This document shows, one piece after another, positions 1 through 7,046 of a stretch of 7,046 nt of DNA. This DNA comes from a virus. Taxonomy: Duplodnaviria; Heunggongvirae; Uroviricota; Caudoviricetes. The DNA is taken from the IMG/VR virus record IMGVR_UViG_2609459803_000005; one strand, given 5' to 3'. The position numbers were made by a program, and so were the translations under genes. The notes beneath the pieces were generated by a model that saw only the letters and a list, made by a program, of their open reading frames with translations, was not told the origin of the DNA and did no database searches. The first letter of the stretch is position 1. Each line of letters opens with the position of its first letter.

Positions 1-537
1 ATGGAACCCCTTCGTGAAATAAGAAATCGGCTGCTTAACGGCTGGCAATTATCAAAAATGCATACTTTTGAAGTGGCTGCCAGGCATCAGTCCTTCGCCC
101 TGGCGGCAGAGGAATTGTCGCTGAGCCCCAGTGCGGTAAGTCACCGTATCAATCAGCTGGAAGAAGAATTGGGCATTCAGTTGTTTGTTCGTTCCCATCG
201 CAAAGTGGAATTAACGCACGAGGGGAAACGTGTTTATTGGGCGCTAAAATCGTCGCTGGATACCCTGAACCAGGAAATTCTTGATATCAAAAATCAGGAG
301 TTATCGGGAACGTTAACTCTGTATTCCCGGCCCTCTATCGCCCAATGCTGGTTGGTGCCCGCATTAGGTGACTTTACACGCCGGTATCTAACAGTAAAAG
401 CCGCCGGGGTATGGGCGGGGGGCATTGAAACACCTTCGGTGGAAACTCCATCGGAAGGCTCTAAATTTTTTGGTTTTGACATGGATAACGAATTCATCAG
501 TGGTTTTGATGTAGGGGCATGGGGAGTATTACTCTGA
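1..537 (+). pseudogene. dsdC: LysR-family transcriptional regulator, dsdC-like (D-serine deaminase activator), N-terminal HTH domain retained, 3' part replaced by unrelated sequence
   Basis: The first ~130 codons carry a classic LysR helix-turn-helix signature (FEVAARHQSFALAAEELSLSPSAVSHRINQLEEELGIQLFVRSHRKVELTHEGKRVY) and match my recollection of E. coli DsdC. After about nt 390-410 the translation (LTVKAAGVWAGGIETPSVETPSEGSKFF...) no longer looks like a LysR co-inducer domain, and the frame stops at 537, whereas LysR regulators are about 300 aa. Symbol assigned from memory. Confidence 0.7.
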
Positions 538-1340
538 TGGCGAAAAATGACTTTAAAGCGTTTGCAACTGATCGAAATGCCAATGTTATGTCGCAGGAGG
601 AATGGGAAGCGTTGCCTGCGCTTATATCCGGATTTACAGCAGGGAAAGCATCCAGTGCGCAAGTCAATAAGGTTATTCGGCAGGCCAGCTTTATTGCTGC
701 AGCTCTGGCCCAGTTTGTAAGTGATAAAACGCAACGGGATGTGCTTGATAATGGTGATCTGCCCGGTTTTGTTGAATTGCTGGGATCGGGGTTTGCTGTT
801 GAATACCTGAGCCGCAAGAATCCGTTTGGTGATATCAAATCGGATGGCACGGTGAAAACAGCTCTCGAAAACCTTGGTTTGGGAGAAGGCTCTGCATTAC
901 CGGTTGGTGTGCCTGTTCCGTGGCCTTCAGCTACACCACCGACAGGCTGGTTGAAATGCAATGGTGCAGCTTTTTCTGCTGAAGAATACCCGGAGCTGGC
1001 AAAGGCTTACCCGACAAATAAATTGCCTGATTTACGTGGTGAGTTTATTCGTGGCTGGGATGATGGGCGTGGAGTGGACAGTGGGCGAGCGTTATTGAGT
1101 GCTCAGAGCGATACGCTGCAAAATATTACAGGTAGCTTTTTGGATATGACCACGGGGCCAAATAATAATACTGTCGGCGCATTTACCTCTTCAACATTGA
1201 CACCAAATCTCGCATCAATTGCGACAGGTGGTACATATAAACAGGCGAATTATTATTTTGATGCATCACGTGTTGCCAGAACATCAACGGAAACACGTGC
1301 GCGAAATATTGCATTTAACTTTATCGTGAGGGCTGCATAA
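519..1340 (+). CDS. Phage tail-fibre protein, C-terminal portion only (5'-truncated remnant: short constant part to ~nt 873 plus variable receptor-binding segment)
   Basis: Tail-fibre C-terminal (collar-type) motif string [54 protein letters not shown]. The same frame has stops at 486-488 and 507-509, so the N-terminal bulk of a normal fibre gene is missing and the ATG at 519 may be fortuitous. The stop overlaps the next gene's start (TAATG at 1338-1342). Confidence 0.8.
862..887. repeat. Left crossover site of the invertible segment (gix/pix-like; internal dyad AAACC-TT-GGTTT)
   Basis: 15 bp TTGGTTTGGGAGAAG at 874-888 is repeated exactly in inverted orientation at 2739-2753. The flanks also partly match (TCGAAAACC versus TCATAAACG in the reverse complement). 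The AAACC-NN-GGTTT layout is as I recall for Gin-family crossover sites. It lies in the codons for LGLGE of the fibre gene. Confidence 0.6.
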
Positions 1341-1942
1341 TGGATAACGCTGTATTAAATAGCGAGCTTATTGCCACGAAGGCGGGGAATATTACCGTCT
1401 ATAGCTATGATGGTGAAACTCGGGAATATATTTCCACTTCAAATGAATATCTTGCCGTTGGTGTTGGTATCCCGGCATATTCCTGTCTGGATGAACCTGG
1501 TATACATAAGGCTGGTTATGCAATCTGCCGTTCGGCAGATTTAAACTCATGGGAATATGTGCCAGACCATCGCGGTGAAATCGTCTATAACACCGAAACG
1601 GGAGACGCCAAAGAAATCACAACTCCGGGTGATTACCCCGAAAATACAACCACTATCGCCCCGTTAACGCCATACGATAAATGGGATGGTGAGAAATGGG
1701 TGACAGACACTGAGGCACAACACAGTGCCGCAGTAGACGCGGCAGAAGCACAGCGCCAGTCACTGATTGATGCAGCAATGGCTTCCATTAGTCTGATTCA
1801 GCTGAAATTACAGGCCGGGCGGAAACTGACGCAGGCAGAAACAACCCGACTTAACGTCGTGCTGGATTACATTGACGCGGTGACGGCAACAGATACCAGC
1901 ACCGCGCCTGATGTCATCTGGCCTGAGCTGCCGGAGGCGTAG
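1340..1942 (+). CDS. Tail-fibre assembly protein (Tfa/U-like chaperone)
   Basis: 200-aa ORF whose start is translationally coupled to the fibre gene (TAATG), with a GTGAGGG Shine-Dalgarno 7 nt upstream. Size and position are typical of Tfa, and the C-terminus carries DTSTAPDVIWP, a motif shared with the convergent second assembly gene. Confidence 0.85.
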   Translation: MDNAVLNSELIATKAGNITVYSYDGETREYISTSNEYLAVGVGIPAYSCLDEPGIHKAGYAICRSADLNSWEYVPDHRGEIVYNTETGDAKEITTPGDYPENTTTIAPLTPYDKWDGEKWVTDTEAQHSAAVDAAEAQRQSLIDAAMASISLIQLKLQAGRKLTQAETTRLNVVLDYIDAVTATDTSTAPDVIWPELPEA

Positions 1943-2357
1943 GCCATTCAATATCGGGTGCTGTTGACGTATCAACACGCATCAGCAGCACACGGTATTT
2001 CTTCCATTGGGTGAGAGTTGAAGTTTCTTCATCAGTTGCGATACCAGCATCAACAGCATCCTGACGCCAGGATATTTCACTGTCAGCTTTTGCACGAAAT
2101 GTGGCTTTCATGTTTTCTGCATCTGATATTTTCTGTTCTGGTGAAAGCGGCGGCTCATCAACCCATGCAAGGGTCCCTGAAACCATTCCCAGCATTTTTC
2201 CTGTTGGCTTATTTCCCCCATTAAATCTGACAGCATCCTCATCGCTGATTTCAATACCATCCTGCGGCCATGTCCCCTCCTTGATATAACTTTCATATAG
2301 CGCTGCGTTGTAGATTGCATTTTCGGACGGGCTGTAAACACTTTTAACTTTATTCAT
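1914..2357 (-). CDS. Alternative tail-fibre assembly protein (U'-like), convergent with the first
   Basis: 147-aa ORF with a GGGAGA Shine-Dalgarno 7 nt before its ATG (2357..2355). It sits directly downstream of the minus-strand alternative fibre segment, whose stop TAA (2364..2362) lies between that Shine-Dalgarno and the ATG. C-terminal DTSTAPDIEWP motif. Its 3' end overlaps the plus-strand assembly gene by 29 bp. Confidence 0.8.
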   Translation of the reverse strand: MNKVKSVYSPSENAIYNAALYESYIKEGTWPQDGIEISDEDAVRFNGGNKPTGKMLGMVSGTLAWVDEPPLSPEQKISDAENMKATFRAKADSEISWRQDAVDAGIATDEETSTLTQWKKYRVLLMRVDTSTAPDIEWPTPPAAQAR

Positions 2358-2361
2358 TCTG

Positions 2362-2748
2362 TTATCTCCCTTTCGCTATATAGCAAAGATTAAACCCACC
2401 GGCGCCTGACATACGGGCTGTAAAACCCGTTCTTGAAGTACCAGTTGAGTTAACTCCATAAGCAGGCATGGTTGCTGGAGAAAGCAGAGACTCCTGGATA
2501 TCTGCCATTGTCAGTGTAATTGATTCGACCCGCGCGGGGAAAGGTAGCGGGAAAACAACATTCGTCCCTGTCTGTCCAACGGGGAAACCGAAAATACCCC
2601 ATTGTGTAATTACCCCATCCGGCCCCTTACTCCATCCAGATTTAGGAATCGGCCAGTCTGCTGCTCCAGAGTGCCCCGTTGTAAAACTACTCATATCTGG
2701 TACTTGCCCGGTATCCGTTCCGACGTTCCTCGTTGCCGCTTCTCCCAA
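2362..2748 (-). CDS. Alternative tail-fibre C-terminal variable segment (Sv'-like), silent in this orientation, expressed only after inversion
   Basis: Minus-strand ORF 2362..2793. Residues 15-18 (GLGE) are encoded by the inverted copy of the crossover repeat, so inversion would fuse the upstream fibre remnant (...ENLGLGE) in frame to this segment. The ORF's first ~14 codons lie outside the invertible segment and are probably not coding. Confidence 0.65.
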   Translation of the reverse strand: MGEAATRNVGTDTGQVPDMSSFTTGHSGAADWPIPKSGWSKGPDGVITQWGIFGFPVGQTGTNVVFPLPFPARVESITLTMADIQESLLSPATMPAYGVNSTGTSRTGFTARMSGAGGFNLCYIAKGR

Positions 2749-2765
2749 ACCAACGTTTATGAAAA
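2740..2765. repeat. Right crossover site of the invertible segment (inverted relative to the left site; internal dyad AAACC-AA-CGTTT)
   Basis: CTTCTCCCAAACCAA at 2739-2753 is the exact reverse complement of 874-888. It lies 55-80 bp upstream of the invertase start, the usual arrangement in Gin/Cin/Pin systems. Confidence 0.6.
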
Positions 2766-2819
2766 TGCAGAAATAACGATCAAATGGCATCATTCCTGCT
2801 TTTGTCAGGGAGATCTACC

Positions 2820-3374
2820 ATGCTTATTGGCTATGTACGTGTGTCAACAAATGACCAGAACACAGATCTACAACGTAATGCGCTGAACTGTGCAGGATGC
2901 GAGCTTATTTTTGAAGACAAGATAAGCGGTACAAAGTCCGAAAGGCCGGGACTGAAAAAACTGCTCAGGACATTATCGGCAGGTGACACTCTGGTCGTCT
3001 GGAAGCTGGATCGGCTGGGGCGTAGTATGCGGCATCTTGTCGTGCTGGTGGAGGAGTTGCGCGAACGAGGCATCAACTTTCGTAGTCTGACGGATTCAAT
3101 TGATACCAGCACACCAATGGGACGCTTTTTCTTTCATGTGATGGGTGCCCTGGCTGAAATGGAGCGTGAACTGATTGTTGAACGAACAAAAGTTGGACTG
3201 GAAGCTGCTCGCGCACAGGGACGAATTGGTGGACGTCGCCCCAAACTTACACCAGAACAATGGGAGCAGGCCGGACGATTAATTGCAGCAGGAATTCCTC
3301 GCCAGAAGGTAGCGATCATCTATGATATTGGTGTATCGACTTTGTATAAGAGGTTTCCAGCCAGGATTATATAA
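2820..3374 (+). CDS. Serine recombinase, DNA invertase of the Gin/Pin/Cin/Hin family
   Basis: N-terminus MLIGYVRVSTNDQNTDLQRNAL carries the catalytic-serine motif (YVRVST), followed by DRLGRS and a C-terminal HTH, in a protein of about 185 aa. GGGAGA Shine-Dalgarno 6 nt upstream of the ATG at 2820. The ORF-track start at 2784 is an in-frame upstream extension without a ribosome-binding site. Closely resembles e14 Pin as I remember it. Confidence 0.92.
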   Translation: MLIGYVRVSTNDQNTDLQRNALNCAGCELIFEDKISGTKSERPGLKKLLRTLSAGDTLVVWKLDRLGRSMRHLVVLVEELRERGINFRSLTDSIDTSTPMGRFFFHVMGALAEMERELIVERTKVGLEAARAQGRIGGRRPKLTPEQWEQAGRLIAAGIPRQKVAIIYDIGVSTLYKRFPARII

Positions 3375-3411
3375 AACCGCAGACACGCCGTATGCAAGAC
3401 GTGCTGCGGTT
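3375..3411 (+). terminator. Stem-loop immediately after the invertase stop codon (possible terminator or RNA-stability element; no U-tract)
   Basis: AACCGCAGACACG ... CGTG-CTGCGGTT forms a stem of about 12-13 bp with one bulge, starting 1 nt after the TAA. No T-run follows, so intrinsic termination is doubtful. Confidence 0.25.
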
Positions 3412-3570
3412 GGCTGATGCACTTTCGAGAGTGTATGTATTGAATTATTTCCAGCCGTTACTGATTTTACGTATTTTTTGTATGAGAGGAGTTGCACCAC
3501 CTCTTAAGCATAATTTGTTAGAATCATGGCAGCACAATAGCCATATATCCAATATAAAATACTTAACCTT

Positions 3571-4470
3571 CTAATCATTATGGAGTATTTGATCGCCGTA
3601 TGGCCAGCCATTTTCCCCAGGAAGGGTCATACCTAACATTGGCATAATACTAAGTTGTCCAATGGTAAATCCTAGAGCACTTGTATTACTGATTCCGGCA
3701 TAGGTCATATCAAGGGGGTTAGACTCTGAGCTGGACATAAAAAGATTTCTTGTGCCAATTCTATTCGCCATTGAGAACTGAATATGCCCACCAATTGTAT
3801 TTACGGTGTCCTGAGATATCCAGTTGTTTAACGCGATAAATGGCGCCCGCCACCAGTTAAGCGTGCCATTCTCAAAACGCCCCCTCGTCATCTCAATATC
3901 TTCCCGAAACTGCTGCTTTCTGTCTCCCAAGACTACCGGGGTACCTGTTGTCAGGTCAAGGCAGTCCTCAATTACAAGATTAGTGGGGTTTGATGGGGTG
4001 TTGTAGATCTTAATGATTTTATGTACCTGTGTTCTGAAACAGAATCCGTAAATAATCATCTCCGTTGCTACAGAACGGGGAAAAAACTGGCCAATATCCA
4101 GTATAAATTTTTCCGCGATTCCCTTTGTTAAAACTGCAATTTCATAAAGACTCGGGTAACTATCATAAGTCAACTCCGGCTGCTGAACATCATAATAATT
4201 AACTTCATGTAATGAAGATAATGATACGGCAAGTAACTCCTTCACATTTATACCGATCATTGTTCCTCCTGCAAAGCCGAAACCAAACTCCATAATTTTT
4301 TCCGGAGATAGACGGTATATGTCATTGGAGCGAATAACTGATACCGGAATCGAGAATAGTTTAGGACAGTGATTTGTCATTACACTTTCATGCTGGGTGA
4401 TTCTTGAGTCGCTTACGGCCCAGATACTTTCCCCTTCTTCCCTGTTTAGCCAGCAGGCTATTGCTGTCAT
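3571..4470 (-). CDS. Hypothetical protein, 299 aa, unknown function (possible Ntn-hydrolase/HslV-like N-terminal region, unverified)
   Basis: Long minus-strand ORF (track 3571..4608). I place the start at the ATG at 4470 because it has a strong AAGGGGG Shine-Dalgarno 6 nt upstream. This gives MTAIACWLNREEGESIWAVSDSRIT... I recognise no family with certainty. Confidence 0.7.
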   Translation of the reverse strand: MTAIACWLNREEGESIWAVSDSRITQHESVMTNHCPKLFSIPVSVIRSNDIYRLSPEKIMEFGFGFAGGTMIGINVKELLAVSLSSLHEVNYYDVQQPELTYDSYPSLYEIAVLTKGIAEKFILDIGQFFPRSVATEMIIYGFCFRTQVHKIIKIYNTPSNPTNLVIEDCLDLTTGTPVVLGDRKQQFREDIEMTRGRFENGTLNWWRAPFIALNNWISQDTVNTIGGHIQFSMANRIGTRNLFMSSSESNPLDMTYAGISNTSALGFTIGQLSIMPMLGMTLPGENGWPYGDQILHND

Positions 4471-4872
4471 TGAAAACCCCCTTTTAAGTAAAAAAATCAG
4501 ATTCAGATAGTGCATACATAATTTAGTCAAGTCATCTCTTTTAAGACGCATTGAGAAATGGTTGCTCAAGGTGCGCCAGTGAACGCGCACGAAAATAACT
4601 TCTTGCATTTCCCATTACACTCTGACTTTAGGGCCGCGTTAGATTTTAACATGGTGGCCGTGCATCCATTTAAATTGGTAATCTGGAGAATGAGTAACGC
4701 TGAATAGATTAACAATCTATGCGACTAACGGCCCTTAAAAGCGCAGCTCATAACATCGAATTTTACCAGTTTAGTCATTTTTAAAAAGTGCCCGAAAAAT
4801 GTTGTCCACGATTTGTGCTCTACGTCCCATCTTGACCTACTCCCTGATAATTCACTCAGAAGGCGGTTAGCA

Positions 4873-4900
4873 ATGTCCGTTAAGTGCTCACAACGGACAT
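4873..4900. promoter_or_regulatory. Perfect 9-bp inverted repeat (ATGTCCGTT-N10-AACGGACAT) inside the cargo-cassette spacer; candidate operator or RNA hairpin
   Basis: Directly visible dyad symmetry. It lies between the two cargo genes, inside the questionable 78-aa ORF. Confidence 0.3.
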
Positions 4901-4951
4901 TCAGCCCACTAAATCCGACCGTGTCGCTCAATATGCGGACAGGTTGTAGTG

Positions 4952-5554
4952 CTAACTGCATTGTAGCTGTGAGATTTCACCATCGATGGCTTCTATAACC
5001 TGTTTATAGCGGAGCATGACCTCATCATGAATCATCATTAATCCGCGGCCGTACTCTGTGGCTAGGATTGTGTATCTTTTCAGGTGTGCAAGATGTTCTT
5101 TGTTGCCAGTAATGTCACTTGCAACCTGCGTGGAGTCCAGCCGTTCGATAAGCGCATTATTGCCGCGATAGGAATCAATTAGGCTTCTTGCGCTTGTATA
5201 AAAAGCCACAATTTTTGAGAGTGTTTCTCTATGAACTTCAGGTAGGGATGCCGAGTTGGCTTCATAGAACGTGAAGTAGTTTTGAGTAATGGGGAAAATG
5301 TTATCGAACGGTGAGTTCCGGTCGTATTTTTCGATTTCTTCTGCCATTCTGGCCTGATACAGTTTAATCAGTGAGTCTATTTCCTCTCTGACACCCAATA
5401 GCGTTGTTATACGCTTCTCTCTGGCCGCTGTTGCCTGCTGTTTTGCCTGCTGTTTCACCTGAGTTGTCACTCCTATCATCGTGAAACAGCCACCTAAAAG
5501 AGCTGCTAAAAATGCGGAGATGAGATCTGAATATTCGTGCCAGAAGGTTAGCAT
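4952..5554 (-). CDS. Hypothetical membrane-anchored protein, 200 aa (one N-terminal hydrophobic helix, then a charged, probably helical domain)
   Basis: Minus-strand ORF whose N-terminus has a hydrophobic stretch (LISAFLAALLGGCFTMIGV), followed by a K/Q/E/R-rich segment. No convincing Shine-Dalgarno before the first ATG (5554). An alternative internal start at 5479 has an AGGTGG upstream but would remove part of the hydrophobic helix, so the start is uncertain. Confidence 0.65.
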   Translation of the reverse strand: MLTFWHEYSDLISAFLAALLGGCFTMIGVTTQVKQQAKQQATAAREKRITTLLGVREEIDSLIKLYQARMAEEIEKYDRNSPFDNIFPITQNYFTFYEANSASLPEVHRETLSKIVAFYTSARSLIDSYRGNNALIERLDSTQVASDITGNKEHLAHLKRYTILATEYGRGLMMIHDEVMLRYKQVIEAIDGEISQLQCS

Positions 5555-5565
5555 GGCGAAAATTC

Positions 5566-5588
5566 CATTGGGTTAAATTATGTCTATT
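5566..5588. promoter_or_regulatory. Perfect palindrome GGTTAAAT-N7-ATTTAACC 12 bp upstream of the first cargo gene; candidate operator overlapping a -10-like hexamer (CATAAT on the minus strand, 5572-5577)
   Basis: Exact 8-bp inverted repeat read from the sequence. AT-rich, so more likely a protein-binding site than a stable hairpin. Confidence 0.3.
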
Positions 5589-5888
5589 TAACCACATAAT
5601 GATACGAAGATACCTTCCAAAATGTTGCTATGACCCCATCTGTTGTTGCCTGGCTGGTGACGTGTCTGGGTATTAGCACCGTGCTCTCTCATTATCTAAG
5701 TCTGGGCCAATCCTCGTTCATAACAGGCATTCACTTCAGTCATGGCAGAAAGGTATGCATGCTGGAGAAGTCATGAAAGAAAAGAAGACTTCTGCCTCGT
5801 TTGTCATCACTGTTATCTTCTCATTGATTATGCAGGTCATAGTGGGGACACACAAAGCTTTGTACTATCCGATAGTGGTTAAGGTGGA

Positions 5889-7046
5889 TCACTCCACCTT
5901 TTCATCAAGCCAATCCGCCCACCACTGCATCATTTCTCTGCGCTTATCGAGATACTGAGCATGGTTGTAAATACCGCGCACAGATCCGCCGTTGGCATGT
6001 GCCAGTTGCACTTCAATAGCGTCAGCAGGCCATTCGTGCTCGTTCATAATCGTGCTGAATTCATGCCTGAATCCGTGACCGCTTTCCAGACCCTCATAGC
6101 CGATTTGTTTGATCACAAGTAGCACCGCGTTCTCGCAAATTGGCTTCTTCTTATCGTTGCGCCCGGAAAAAACAAACTCTGATACTGGTTTAGTGATTGA
6201 GCTTAGTGTAGTGAGAAGTTCAACCACCTGGTCTGACATCGGGACCACATGAATTTTGCGTCCCTTCATTACACTGGCGTCGATGGTGATAATCCTGTTT
6301 TCAAAATCGACGTTCTTCCATAGCATGGAGCGAAGCTCTTTCGTTCTTAGGGCTGTGTAGCGCAAAACTTTAGTCGCAATGAGCGATACGATACTTCCTG
6401 AAAATGTTGCCAGTGCTTTATTGAATGCCGGGATCTGGTCTGCAGGAAGAAACGGGAAGTTTTTCTTGCGGTATCCCTTCATGGCGTCAGCAAGGTCAGG
6501 TGCCGGGTTATATTTAGCCCTACCAGTGACAATAGCGTAACGGAAAACCTCGCCGCATCTTCTGCGGGCTTTATTTGCTCGCTCCATTGCACCGCGATCT
6601 TCAAATCTGCGGATTACTTCCAGCAGTTGCATCGGCTCAATCTCCTGAATTTCAAGGCCGCCGATGATAGGTAAAATGTCGTCATCAAACATTTTTGCAA
6701 GTTCAGTCGCATACCCTACTGACCATACTTGCTTCTTGTGCTCGTACCATTCCTTGTAAATCGCACTAAATGAATTGTTGTTAGACGAAGCCTTTTTCGC
6801 CTTTACCGGATCGATGCCAACCGAGATGTCTTTCCTCGCAGTCCATGCCTTATCCCTTGCTTCCTGCAAAGTCATAAGCGGATATTTTCCGACGGTCAGG
6901 ATTTTCTCCTTACCGTCAATCTTGTAGCGAAGCTGCCATACCTTTTTCCCGGATACAGGAACATAAAGGTACAGGCCATTACCATCGAGAAGGCGGTATG
7001 GTTTTTCTTTCGGCTTTGCTGCTTCAATCTGCTTAACGGTGAGCAT
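5889..7046 (-). CDS. intS: Tyrosine recombinase, P4-type prophage integrase (IntS-like, CPS-53/KpLE1 family)
   Basis: Complete 385-aa ORF. Tyrosine-recombinase catalytic residues are visible near the C-terminus (HGFRHEFST with H-x-x-R, and VRGIYNHAQY with the catalytic Tyr). The start codon is the last triplet of the window, so the expected tRNA attachment site lies outside it. Symbol inferred from the dsdC-proximal context and my memory of K-12 IntS. Confidence 0.88.
   Translation of the reverse strand: MLTVKQIEAAKPKEKPYRLLDGNGLYLYVPVSGKKVWQLRYKIDGKEKILTVGKYPLMTLQEARDKAWTARKDISVGIDPVKAKKASSNNNSFSAIYKEWYEHKKQVWSVGYATELAKMFDDDILPIIGGLEIQEIEPMQLLEVIRRFEDRGAMERANKARRRCGEVFRYAIVTGRAKYNPAPDLADAMKGYRKKNFPFLPADQIPAFNKALATFSGSIVSLIATKVLRYTALRTKELRSMLWKNVDFENRIITIDASVMKGRKIHVVPMSDQVVELLTTLSSITKPVSEFVFSGRNDKKKPICENAVLLVIKQIGYEGLESGHGFRHEFSTIMNEHEWPADAIEVQLAHANGGSVRGIYNHAQYLDKRREMMQWWADWLDEKVE

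Follow-up and report, generated by a model that had tools for sequence, protein, structure and literature searches.

An e14 P-segment-type tail-fibre inversion system in a prophage stump between dsdC and intS, found in both orientations among natural isolates

The stretch of DNA analysed here (IMG/VR virus record IMGVR_UViG_2609459803_000005; 7,046 nt, called below the window) corresponds to the dsdC-intS(-argW) locus. It carries a truncated dsdC gene joined to the end of a baseplate gene, a tail-fibre gene, two convergent chaperone genes, an alternative fibre tip and the gene of a DNA invertase, arranged around two inverted crossover sites as follows.

1-382, plus strand: 5' part of dsdC, encoding the LysR-type activator of D-serine deaminase (Pfam HTH_1 and the first 35 positions of LysR_substrate)
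383-537, plus strand: 3'-terminal 51 codons of a DUF2612 baseplate gene, forming an in-frame fusion with dsdC' (homology to a strain C1 CDS)
537-1340, plus strand: fibre gene in the state of the window, 267 aa (Pfam Collar)
537-875, plus strand: constant 5' part of the fibre gene (Sc), codons 1-113 of the ORF 537-1340
862-887: left 26-bp crossover site (pixL-type), CTCTCGAAAACC-TT-GGTTTGGGAGAA, crossover dinucleotide 874-875
876-1340, plus strand: variable fibre tip now joined to Sc, StfE-like, with a phage tail collar domain (Pfam Collar, E 1.8e-15)
1340-1942, plus strand: TfaE-like tail-fibre assembly chaperone, 200 aa (Caudo_TAP, E 7e-32)
1914-2357, minus strand: alternative chaperone, 147 aa (Caudo_TAP, E 1e-32)
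2362-2751, minus strand: alternative variable fibre tip, unjoined to Sc in the window (Pfam Gp53-like_C, E 1.4e-10)
2740-2765: right 26-bp crossover site (pixR-type), TTCTCCCAAACC-AA-CGTTTATGAAAA, crossover dinucleotide 2752-2753
2766-2793, minus strand: short leader, located beyond the right site (MMPFDRYFCIFI-NV..), part of the ORF 2362-2793 and counterpart of the e14 'stfE' leader
2820-3374, plus strand: pin, serine DNA invertase, 184 aa (Resolvase, E 6e-51; HTH_7, E 9e-15)
2838-2909: stretch in the 5' end of pin that, by homology only, is presumed to be a recombinational enhancer dependent on Fis

The left part of the window, which gives the context of the switch and lies outside it, bears the mark of a deletion. 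The dsdC gene is truncated after about codon 127, and the bases that follow (383-537) are 99.6% identical, in the same frame, to the end of the annotated DUF2612 coding sequence of strain C1 (L006 6475-7155), a single ORF (1-537) spanning the resulting DsdC'-DUF2612' fusion. The TGA of this fusion (535-537) overlaps the ATG of the fibre gene (537-539) in a TGATG. Bases 1-382 and bases 383-900 each have matches in complete E. coli genomes, but nowhere side by side; none of 5,426 such genomes has the junction, which an exact-protein contig look-up did detect in 13 public contigs. No other structural genes were detected between dsdC and intS, the deletion having left the fibre genes, the invertase, two cargo genes and the integrase. 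With every other virion gene gone, there is no tail to which the fibre could be attached, and an alternating host range can no longer be exercised by this element. The preliminary description had called the switch complete, which holds for the switch module but not for the prophage, deleted leftward to the last 51 DUF2612 codons. An Rfam scan of the whole window gave no matches, nor did NCBIfam for the fibre, chaperone or two cargo proteins.

The cargo downstream of pin consists of a proteasome-like gene and a gene for a TM protein. The former encodes an unannotated proteasome-beta-like protein of 299 aa and is arguably more novel than the switch within the window. With PADLOC, neither the 299-aa protein nor Pin had a match, and the 200-aa protein had just a weak, ZorB/MotB-like one (E 2e-3). 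PHROGs gave no matches for the two cargo proteins, and a search of PDB sequences returned nothing meaningful for them.

The crossover sites lie in inverted-repeat arms (869-888 and 2739-2758; 20 nt with one mismatch) that share an exact 15-bp core, TTGGTTTGGGAGAAG (874-888) and CTTCTCCCAAACCAA (2739-2753). This core had been recognised in the preliminary description, and the boundaries given there, 862 and 2765, proved to be the exact outer coordinates of the two 26-bp sites. It had also proposed an alignment with known gix, cix and pix sites: the left and right sites show 100% identity to those of e14, a cryptic prophage of E. coli K-12 (pix; L002 3779-3804 and L002 5606-5631, respectively), and both are in register with the annotated P1 cixL/cixR and Mu gixL/gixR sites, crossover dinucleotide included. 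In P1 cixL, with which the left site aligns in register, the crossover is annotated between the two central T's. Each site of the window is made of imperfect 12-bp half-sites around the same TT/AA core, as in the invertase family. A degenerate invertase-site pattern allowing up to three mismatches matched the window just twice, at 862-887 and 2740-2765, and had zero matches in 200 dinucleotide-preserving shuffles. A multi-site system of the shufflon or Min-like kind was considered and ruled out, the window holding two sites only at this threshold. The crossover-to-crossover distance is 1878 bp, in line with the 1.9 kb estimated earlier, and the crossover dinucleotide falls within a Leu codon of E-N-L-G-L-G-E (gaa aac cTT ggt ttg gga gaa).

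The crossover lies inside the fibre gene and exchanges C-termini in frame, each tip being followed by a Caudo_TAP gene. The N-terminal part of Sc is identical to the non-invertible fibre of strain C1 and shows 44% identity to the constant part of e14 and NADC1036, while its final ~27 residues are conserved in all four fibres compared (the present one and those of C1, e14 and NADC1036). The plus-strand tip is near-identical to e14 StfE over its first ~75 residues and diverges distally (55% over 172 aa), and the chaperone that follows shows 90% amino acid identity to e14 TfaE. On the minus strand, the tip is 27% identical to that of e14 StfP, and the 147-aa chaperone is just 39% identical to TfaP across the C-terminal 76 aa. 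The 3' ends of the two convergent chaperone genes overlap by 29 nt. Within each pair, fibre and chaperone are tightly coupled, by a TAATG (1338-1342) in which the fibre stop overlaps the chaperone start on the plus strand and by GGGAGA-TAA-CAGA-ATG, with the TAA between Shine-Dalgarno and ATG, on the minus strand. The mirror-image gene pairs, their coupling and the in-frame swap at the LGLGE codons, all proposed in the preliminary description, were thus borne out by the ORFs, by the Pfam domains and by natural inverted isolates: in L007 and L009 the alternative tip is in frame with Sc as a 242-aa fibre, and in L007 the gene of this fibre has been called. The 267-aa fibre has likewise been called in natural isolates. 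The minus-strand tip frame is also open beyond the right site, up to an ATG at 2793/2790, which yields a 143-aa ORF (2362-2793) in the window. The leader outside the right site (2766-2793), in a region 95% identical to e14, gives an open frame to whichever tip faces it, and the leader-tip ORFs called in natural isolates measure 142/143 aa in L008/L012 and 167 aa in L007, where the other tip faces the leader.

The pin gene starts 54 nt beyond the right site, just outside the segment as had been described, and automatic annotation already names the genes pinE and tfaE. The 184-aa Pin protein has the organisation of a Din-family recombinase, an N-terminal catalytic domain with Ser9 and a C-terminal HTH, and shares 96% identity with PinE, 82% with Cin and 78% with Gin. 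Residues Ser9, R7, D64, R65 and R68 are invariant between it and these three invertases; M114 is conserved too. The roles of two of these are known from Gin, in which S9 is catalytic and M114 is the Fis-dependence residue (PMC3575834). The last four residues of Pin are ARII, as against AGDK in PinE. The putative enhancer (72 nt, 2838-2909) is the counterpart of cin nt 19-90, annotated in P1 as 'enhancer of Cin-mediated C-segment inversion', with 95.8% identity to pinE, 76% to cin and 75% to gin. Within it, homology points to two Fis-like G-N13-C 15-mers, at pin nt 22-36 (shared by three of the four invertase genes) and nt 71-85 (shared by all four). In 1-3600, a scan for sigma-70 consensus promoters and terminators gave no more hits than shuffled sequences, none of them at a plausible place with respect to pin, the fibre operon or the leader ORF. 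It should be noted that the Gin, Cin, Pin and Hin invertases cross-complement, so that flipping could also come from another Pin, such as that of e14, where one is present.

Both orientations of the segment occur in nature, as judged by comparisons between isolates or assemblies rather than within one population, and mostly on short-read assemblies. The unique deletion junction recurs in five sequences (L007-L010 and L012), each with 0-1 SNP relative to the window, counted after in-silico inversion where the segment is inverted. L007 (GCA_000700245.1) is the window with 876-2751 precisely inverted and one SNP in 7046 nt; L009 (SRR1186469) is inverted as well, with 0 mismatches in 1754 nt. The orientation of the window is found in L008 (ERR3328832), with one SNP, and in L010 (SRR1186636) and L012 (GCA_000700425.1), with 0 mismatches. 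In the finished genome of E. coli NADC1036, the same right-hand DNA belongs to a full-length prophage whose segment is inverted, with 6 mismatches in 6237 nt after in-silico inversion. L007, L009 and NADC1036 therefore stand against L008, L010 and L012, with breakpoints inside the sites. Among complete genomes, the cassette pair next to pin was found 11 times in the orientation of the window and 23 times in the opposite one. The preliminary description had named the occurrence of one orientation only as evidence against a switch; instead, both are present among isolates with the same deletion junction. The contig breaks of L009 and L010 were considered as evidence of mixed orientation and rejected, as they fall in tfa genes, which we suspect to be repeated in other prophages, and not at the inverted repeat. 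The e14 P segment, whose sites are identical, inverts in culture (PMC4272514, PMC12529663).

Taken together, these results make it very probable that the region is a functional Pin/pix site-specific inversion switch of the e14 P-segment type acting on a phage tail-fibre gene. The anatomy is that of the proven system, the sites are identical to its own, the catalytic residues are intact and both orientations exist in natural isolates. The switch is most likely still flipping, as a recent relic in a young prophage stump. The assignment to the known type represented by Mu G, P1 C and e14 P was correct as to kind, the closest relative being e14 P and not Mu G. By analogy with Gin, Cin and Hin, Pin dimers would bind the two inverted 26-bp sites, which would then be brought into synapsis with an enhancer that lies in the 5' end of pin and is bound by Fis; Ser9 would cut with a 2-bp stagger at the central TT/AA (874-875 and 2752-2753), and one dimer pair would turn by 180 degrees before religation of the strands. 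Dependence on Fis and on the enhancer, the exact position of cleavage and flipping by the Pin encoded in cis are what we infer. Inversion of the 1878 bp would fuse Sc codons 1-113 in frame to either of the two tips. In state 1, that of the window, the collar-type, StfE-like tip would complete the 267-aa fibre, with read-through into the TfaE-like chaperone; in state 2, the gp53-like tip would give the 242-aa fibre, followed by its own 147-aa chaperone.

It is unlikely that the switch has instead been domesticated by the host, being kept since the fibre-derived protein of one orientation masks receptors against other phages. In e14, inversion of the P segment is reported to yield StfE2, a protein blocking T2 adsorption in which the pin-proximal leader is joined to a tip with a gp53-like domain (Kirigo et al. 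2025, PMC12529663), and the window has an e14-like leader and a gp53-like tip in this very configuration (the 143-aa minus-strand ORF). Furthermore, all four cassette ORFs and pin are intact, and with the end of the fusion ORF 1-537 overlapping the fibre start, the dsdC promoter could now drive the fibre operon across the DsdC'-DUF2612' fusion, which is in frame and translationally coupled. However, the stump is at most 0.1% diverged from a full prophage and is thus too young for intact genes to be a sign of selection; likewise, as its gp53-like tip is just 27% identical to that of e14, the activity reported for StfE2 is not transferable to it. The Shine-Dalgarno sequences of the leader ATGs are poorly spaced, an in-frame fusion is expected by chance in one case out of three, and the retained genes are simply those nearest to the integrase end. 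Quite doubtful, too, is the proposal that the stump forms a minimal host-retained phase-variable module which, with the proteasome-beta-like gene, modulates susceptibility to other phages. Expression of such a module would rely on the dsdC promoter via the fusion and/or on the leader, as an StfE2-like 143-aa protein; if true, the locus would be a recombinase-switched defence island that has been minimised in nature.

A frozen fossil, that is, the architecture of a switch that flips no more, with the orientations in databases being old and separately inherited states, is very improbable. It would fit with the reduction of the prophage to a deletion stump, with orientation differences known between samples and not within one, and with the lack of a promoter-like site for pin in the consensus scan, but the orientation variants with the common junction are separated by 0-1 SNP in as much as 7 kb, which places the inversion after the deletion and makes it very recent, and Pin, both sites and the enhancer-homologous region are all intact. 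Finally, it is hardly credible that the inversion arose from RecA-dependent recombination between short repeats or from an assembly artefact: any inverted repeat can in principle mediate inversion and the supporting sequences are mostly short-read assemblies, yet the exact homology of only 15 bp is probably not enough for RecA to recombine efficiently. The repeat has the form of a textbook invertase site, its sequence is that of a proven one and an invertase gene lies 54 nt from it. A sequencing read is longer than the 20-nt repeat, so that orientation is set by reads spanning it, and the finished NADC1036 genome is inverted as well.

Inversion systems of the Pin/pix kind favoured here have been understood since the 1980s. 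The switch is therefore ordinary, with little consequence for mechanism, and its value is the modest one of a natural minimal case, in which a switch would flip on after the phage has been deleted around it. The locus, argW/intS, is one at which a recent survey, with the K-12 CPS-53 prophage as BLAST query, had recorded no inversions (PMC12529663). It offers a clean substrate for asking whether the fibre switches of cryptic prophages serve the host, for example in phage defence.

Compared with known systems, the element is closest to the e14 P segment and PinE. The 26-bp sites are identical, the invertases are 96% identical, and the layout is the same (constant part of the fibre, site, tip and tfa, tfa' and tip', site, pin), with the same leader ORF beyond the right site. 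Homology holds for one cassette (TfaE 90% at the amino acid level, the proximal part of StfE near-identical), whereas in the second the tip shares only 27% identity with StfP and the chaperone 39% with TfaP. The segment measures 1797 bp in e14 (PMC12529663) as against 1878 bp in the window, and relative to the MG1655 reference it is the StfE-type tip that is joined to the constant part. Whereas e14 lies at icd, has a YmfQ-type module and carries mcrA after pinE, the window element lies at argW/intS-dsdC, takes its constant fibre N-terminus and baseplate gene from a DUF2612-type tail module and has the proteasome-like and TM protein genes after pin. The different locus, second cassette and downstream cargo make it a relative of e14 P and not e14 P itself; as both prophages are defective, the absence of baseplate genes does not separate the two.

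The P1 C/Cin and Mu G/Gin systems share the mechanism class and the gene logic (Sc, site, Sv-U, U'-Sv', site, invertase), and their sites align in register with those of the window, under a common half-site consensus (xTCxxxAAACC NN GGTTTxxxGAxAA). P1 cix has the same central TT/AA, and the enhancer lies inside the 5' end of the Cin gene, a placement presumed from sequence for pin. The cin gene is on the opposite side of the segment from Sc, as in the window, but is transcribed towards the segment. Both segments are longer, about 3 kb for Mu G (PMC3575834) and about 4.3 kb for P1 C by its annotated coordinates (32225-36480), and encode long S-type fibres (504 aa for the annotated Mu S), whereas the window has short fibres, of 242 and 267 aa, whose tips are unrelated. 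Unlike the stump described here, P1 and Mu are viable phages. In Min of p15B and in shufflons, site-specific inversion likewise shuffles C-terminal coding segments of a surface-recognition protein, through six or more sites and many permutations; the exactly two sites of the window allow two states only. Hin, acting on the H segment of Salmonella, belongs to the same invertase family, with 26-bp sites and a Fis enhancer within the recombinase gene, and flips a promoter, thereby switching flagellin expression, whereas it is a coding-sequence fusion that is swapped in the element of the window.

The 7046-nt window spans the interval between two start codons, that of dsdC at base 1 and that of intS, the prophage integrase gene on the minus strand, at base 7046. 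On public contigs the same DNA is found between dsdXA and intS-yfdC, and contig JNMQ01000016.1 of GCA_000700425.1 equals the window at all 5340 comparable bases. In the finished E. coli genome NADC1036, a tRNA-Arg lies between intS and yfdC.

Features of the window (coordinates, strand, description)
1-382, plus: truncated dsdC
383-537, plus: 3'-terminal 51 codons of a DUF2612 baseplate gene, joined to dsdC' in one reading frame
537-1340, plus: tail-fibre gene, Collar domain
862-887: left invertase site, CTCTCGAAAACC-TT-GGTTTGGGAGAA
1340-1942, plus: fibre-assembly chaperone
1914-2357, minus: second chaperone
2362-2751, minus: gp53-like fibre tip, the frame running on to ATG 2793
2740-2765: right invertase site, TTCTCCCAAACC-AA-CGTTTATGAAAA
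2820-3374, plus: serine recombinase gene
3571-4470, minus: ORF without family match
4952-5554, minus: ORF without family match
5889-7046, minus: intS

The preliminary description had read 862-2765 as a complete G-segment-like invertible tail-fibre switch, and what it observed there was confirmed in every detail. The repeat finder returned inverted arms of 20 nt at 869-888 and 2739-2758 (95% complementarity) and, with the pattern scan, bore out two inverted sites sharing an exact 15-bp core, TTGGTTTGGGAGAAG; the outer coordinates, 862 and 2765, coincide exactly with the outer ends of the two sites. A degenerate site pattern allowing up to 3 mismatches matched the window at 862-887 and 2740-2765 only, and gave 0 matches in 200 dinucleotide-preserving shuffles. 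Each gene pair is tightly coupled, through TAATG at 1338-1342 on the plus strand and through GGGAGA TAA CAGA ATG on the minus strand. The crossover falls in the LGLGE codons, the central TT lying within a Leu codon of E-N-L-G-L-G-E, and the C-terminus is swapped in frame, as the constant part of the fibre (codons 1-113) reads ...GLGEAATRNVG... after inversion. At 1914-1942 the 3' ends of the two convergent chaperone genes share 29 nt, and the two proteins carry a similar C-terminal motif, DTSTAPD[VI].WP..P, as do those of tfaP and tfaE in the cryptic prophage e14.

Three reference systems served for comparing the sites and the invertase: e14 in K-12 MG1655, phage P1 with its C segment (for which cix sites, crossover points and the enhancer are annotated), and phage Mu with its G segment. 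Each site matches its e14 counterpart at 100% identity and aligns in register with cixL (CAATCCTAAACC TT GGTTTAAGAGAA), cixR, gixL and gixR, so that the proposed kinship with gix, cix and pix sites holds. The annotated P1 crossover, between the two central T's, corresponds to window 874/875, and the annotated Mu G boundary stands on the same alignment column. The window invertase shares 96% identity with PinE, 82% with Cin and 78% with Gin, and keeps Ser9, the nucleophile in Gin (PMC3575834), as well as R7, D64, R65, R68 and M114. The P1 enhancer, annotated at cin nt 19-90, has its counterpart in the 72 nt at 2838-2909; this stretch shares 95.8% identity with pinE and, judging from the similarity, is the presumed Fis-bound enhancer. 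Pin-family invertases cross-complement one another, and the flipping enzyme may therefore be the cis-encoded Pin or another member of the family.

The deletion took the 3' part of dsdC and everything upstream of the last 51 DUF2612 codons, and the DsdC'-DUF2612' fusion protein served as the lineage marker for this deletion. The junction was present in 0 of 5,426 complete E. coli genomes, and an exact-sequence look-up found the fusion on 13 public contigs. Orientation was compared between the assemblies of isolates, and both orientations were found among those sharing the junction. Compared to the window, 876-2751 is precisely inverted in GCA_000700245.1 (1 mismatch in 7046), and the segment is also inverted in SRR1186469 (0 mismatches in 1754); the window's orientation is seen in ERR3328832 (1 mismatch), SRR1186636 and GCA_000700425.1 (0 mismatches each). 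Since both orientations occur on a shared deletion junction with near-zero other change, inversion took place later than the deletion, within that lineage. In NADC1036 the prophage is full-length and its segment is inverted; from window position 810 to the right its DNA is that of the window, with 6 mismatches in 6237 nt after in-silico inversion. In complete genomes, the cassette pair adjoining pin was found 11 times in the window's orientation and 23 times in the opposite one. Both orientations of the e14 segment have been shown experimentally to coexist in clonal cultures (PMC4272514; PMC12529663), and the segment used there has sites identical to those of the window. These results support the interpretation first given to the region and indicate that an e14-type site-specific inversion, carried out by Pin, is very probably active.

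The switch module deserves the word complete, having two sites, intact ORFs in both cassettes, an invertase and a presumed enhancer; the phage itself does not, as no head, tail or baseplate gene is left in the stump apart from the DUF2612 3' end. The stump is young, its divergence from a full prophage being 0.1% at most, so that the intactness of its genes is no evidence of selection. A recently orphaned switch, still flipping, is the parsimonious reading. dsdC is cut after about codon 127 while dsdX and dsdA are intact upstream, and the strain is therefore probably unable to induce D-serine deaminase.

The locus might instead have been domesticated, with a host role for a fibre-derived StfE2-like product. 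StfE2, according to a 2025 paper (PMC12529663), arises in e14 when the P segment inverts: the gp53-like tip is then preceded by a short leader from outside the pin-proximal site, and the product is reported to prevent T2 and other phages from adsorbing. In its present orientation the window has an analogous 143-aa ORF with the same leader (2362-2793, minus strand), but the tip shares only 27% identity with its e14 counterpart, the ribosome-binding context is poor and a promoter scan found none. The dsdC promoter could in principle drive the fibre operon, the TGA of the DsdC'-DUF2612' fusion overlapping the fibre ATG (TGATG), yet an in-frame junction is expected by chance in 1 case out of 3. 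We consider domestication quite unlikely and retain the orphaned switch.

Downstream of pin, the minus strand carries a 299-aa ORF (3571-4470) that matched no Pfam, PHROG, NCBIfam or PADLOC family. Among 5.8 billion proteins its own family makes up only 27 clusters, every one labelled hypothetical and without a Pfam domain; the N-terminal Met1-Thr2, Asp21 and Lys37 are invariant in the family; some annotations give 345 aa from ATG 4608, whereas the family alignment favours the start at 4470. A Foldseek search with the AlphaFold model (pLDDT 80.5, pTM 0.83) hit 20S proteasome beta subunits (probability 1.00, E 1e-8), the ORF having a further C-terminal part of about 90 aa. Three further types of mobile element carry homologues as solo cargo where accessory genes sit: a P2-like prophage of Providencia (between ogr and gpD), a P4-int island of Citrobacter (beside CbtA/CbeA) and a lambdoid prophage of Serratia (beside a RelA_SpoT gene and the repressor). 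The ORF has the look of a proteasome-like cargo gene of the N-terminal-nucleophile type, so far undescribed, and is a candidate for a new Ntn-hydrolase accessory or defence gene. The 200-aa ORF (4952-5554, minus strand) has an N-terminal transmembrane-looking segment, and its sole family match was a weak one in PADLOC, ZorB/MotB-like (E 2e-3); its place next to the proteasome-like gene is not conserved in the other elements. Both ORFs lie in an AT-richer 2.5-kb block (3377-5866; GC 0.375-0.47, below 0.44 in most 400-nt windows) of which copies with 99% identity occur elsewhere, both on chromosomes of other E. coli and on the 111-kb plasmid NZ_CP130669.1. Given this recurrence and its position, where e14 has mcrA, the block appears to be a mobile cargo module.

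Among known systems, the P segment of e14 is the closest. The plus-strand pair corresponds to its StfE/TfaE: the chaperones share 90% protein identity and the first ~75 tip residues are nearly identical to StfE, whereas the distal end has diverged. This pair faces away from the constant part in the MG1655 reference but is the expressed pair in the window. By contrast, nothing in e14 matches the minus-strand pair at the nucleotide level; its tip and chaperone are 27% and 39% identical to StfP and TfaP, respectively, although the tip shares the gp53-like fold family with StfP. Residues 1-88 of the constant part are, like the baseplate gene upstream, part of a DUF2612-type tail module, in place of which e14 and NADC1036 have a YmfQ-type module. 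These residues and the baseplate gene are identical to those of the strain C1 prophage, whose fibre is non-invertible; C1 has the same constant part and a single left-site sequence, but neither invertase nor second cassette. A mosaic joint lies at about 810, inside the constant part: the DNA to its right is common to e14, NADC1036 and many other prophages, and that to its left alternates between the two module types. Tail-fibre, tail-fibre-assembly and DUF2612 proteins were among the annotations most enriched at loci of this sort in a systematic survey of programmed inversions (PMC9881135). The last ~27 residues before the crossover are the only stretch of the constant part common to the window, C1, e14 and NADC1036, which places the site in a conserved linker where fibre modules are exchanged. 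Compared to e14, the locus, the second cassette and the constant part are new, while the sites are identical and the enzyme is nearly so.
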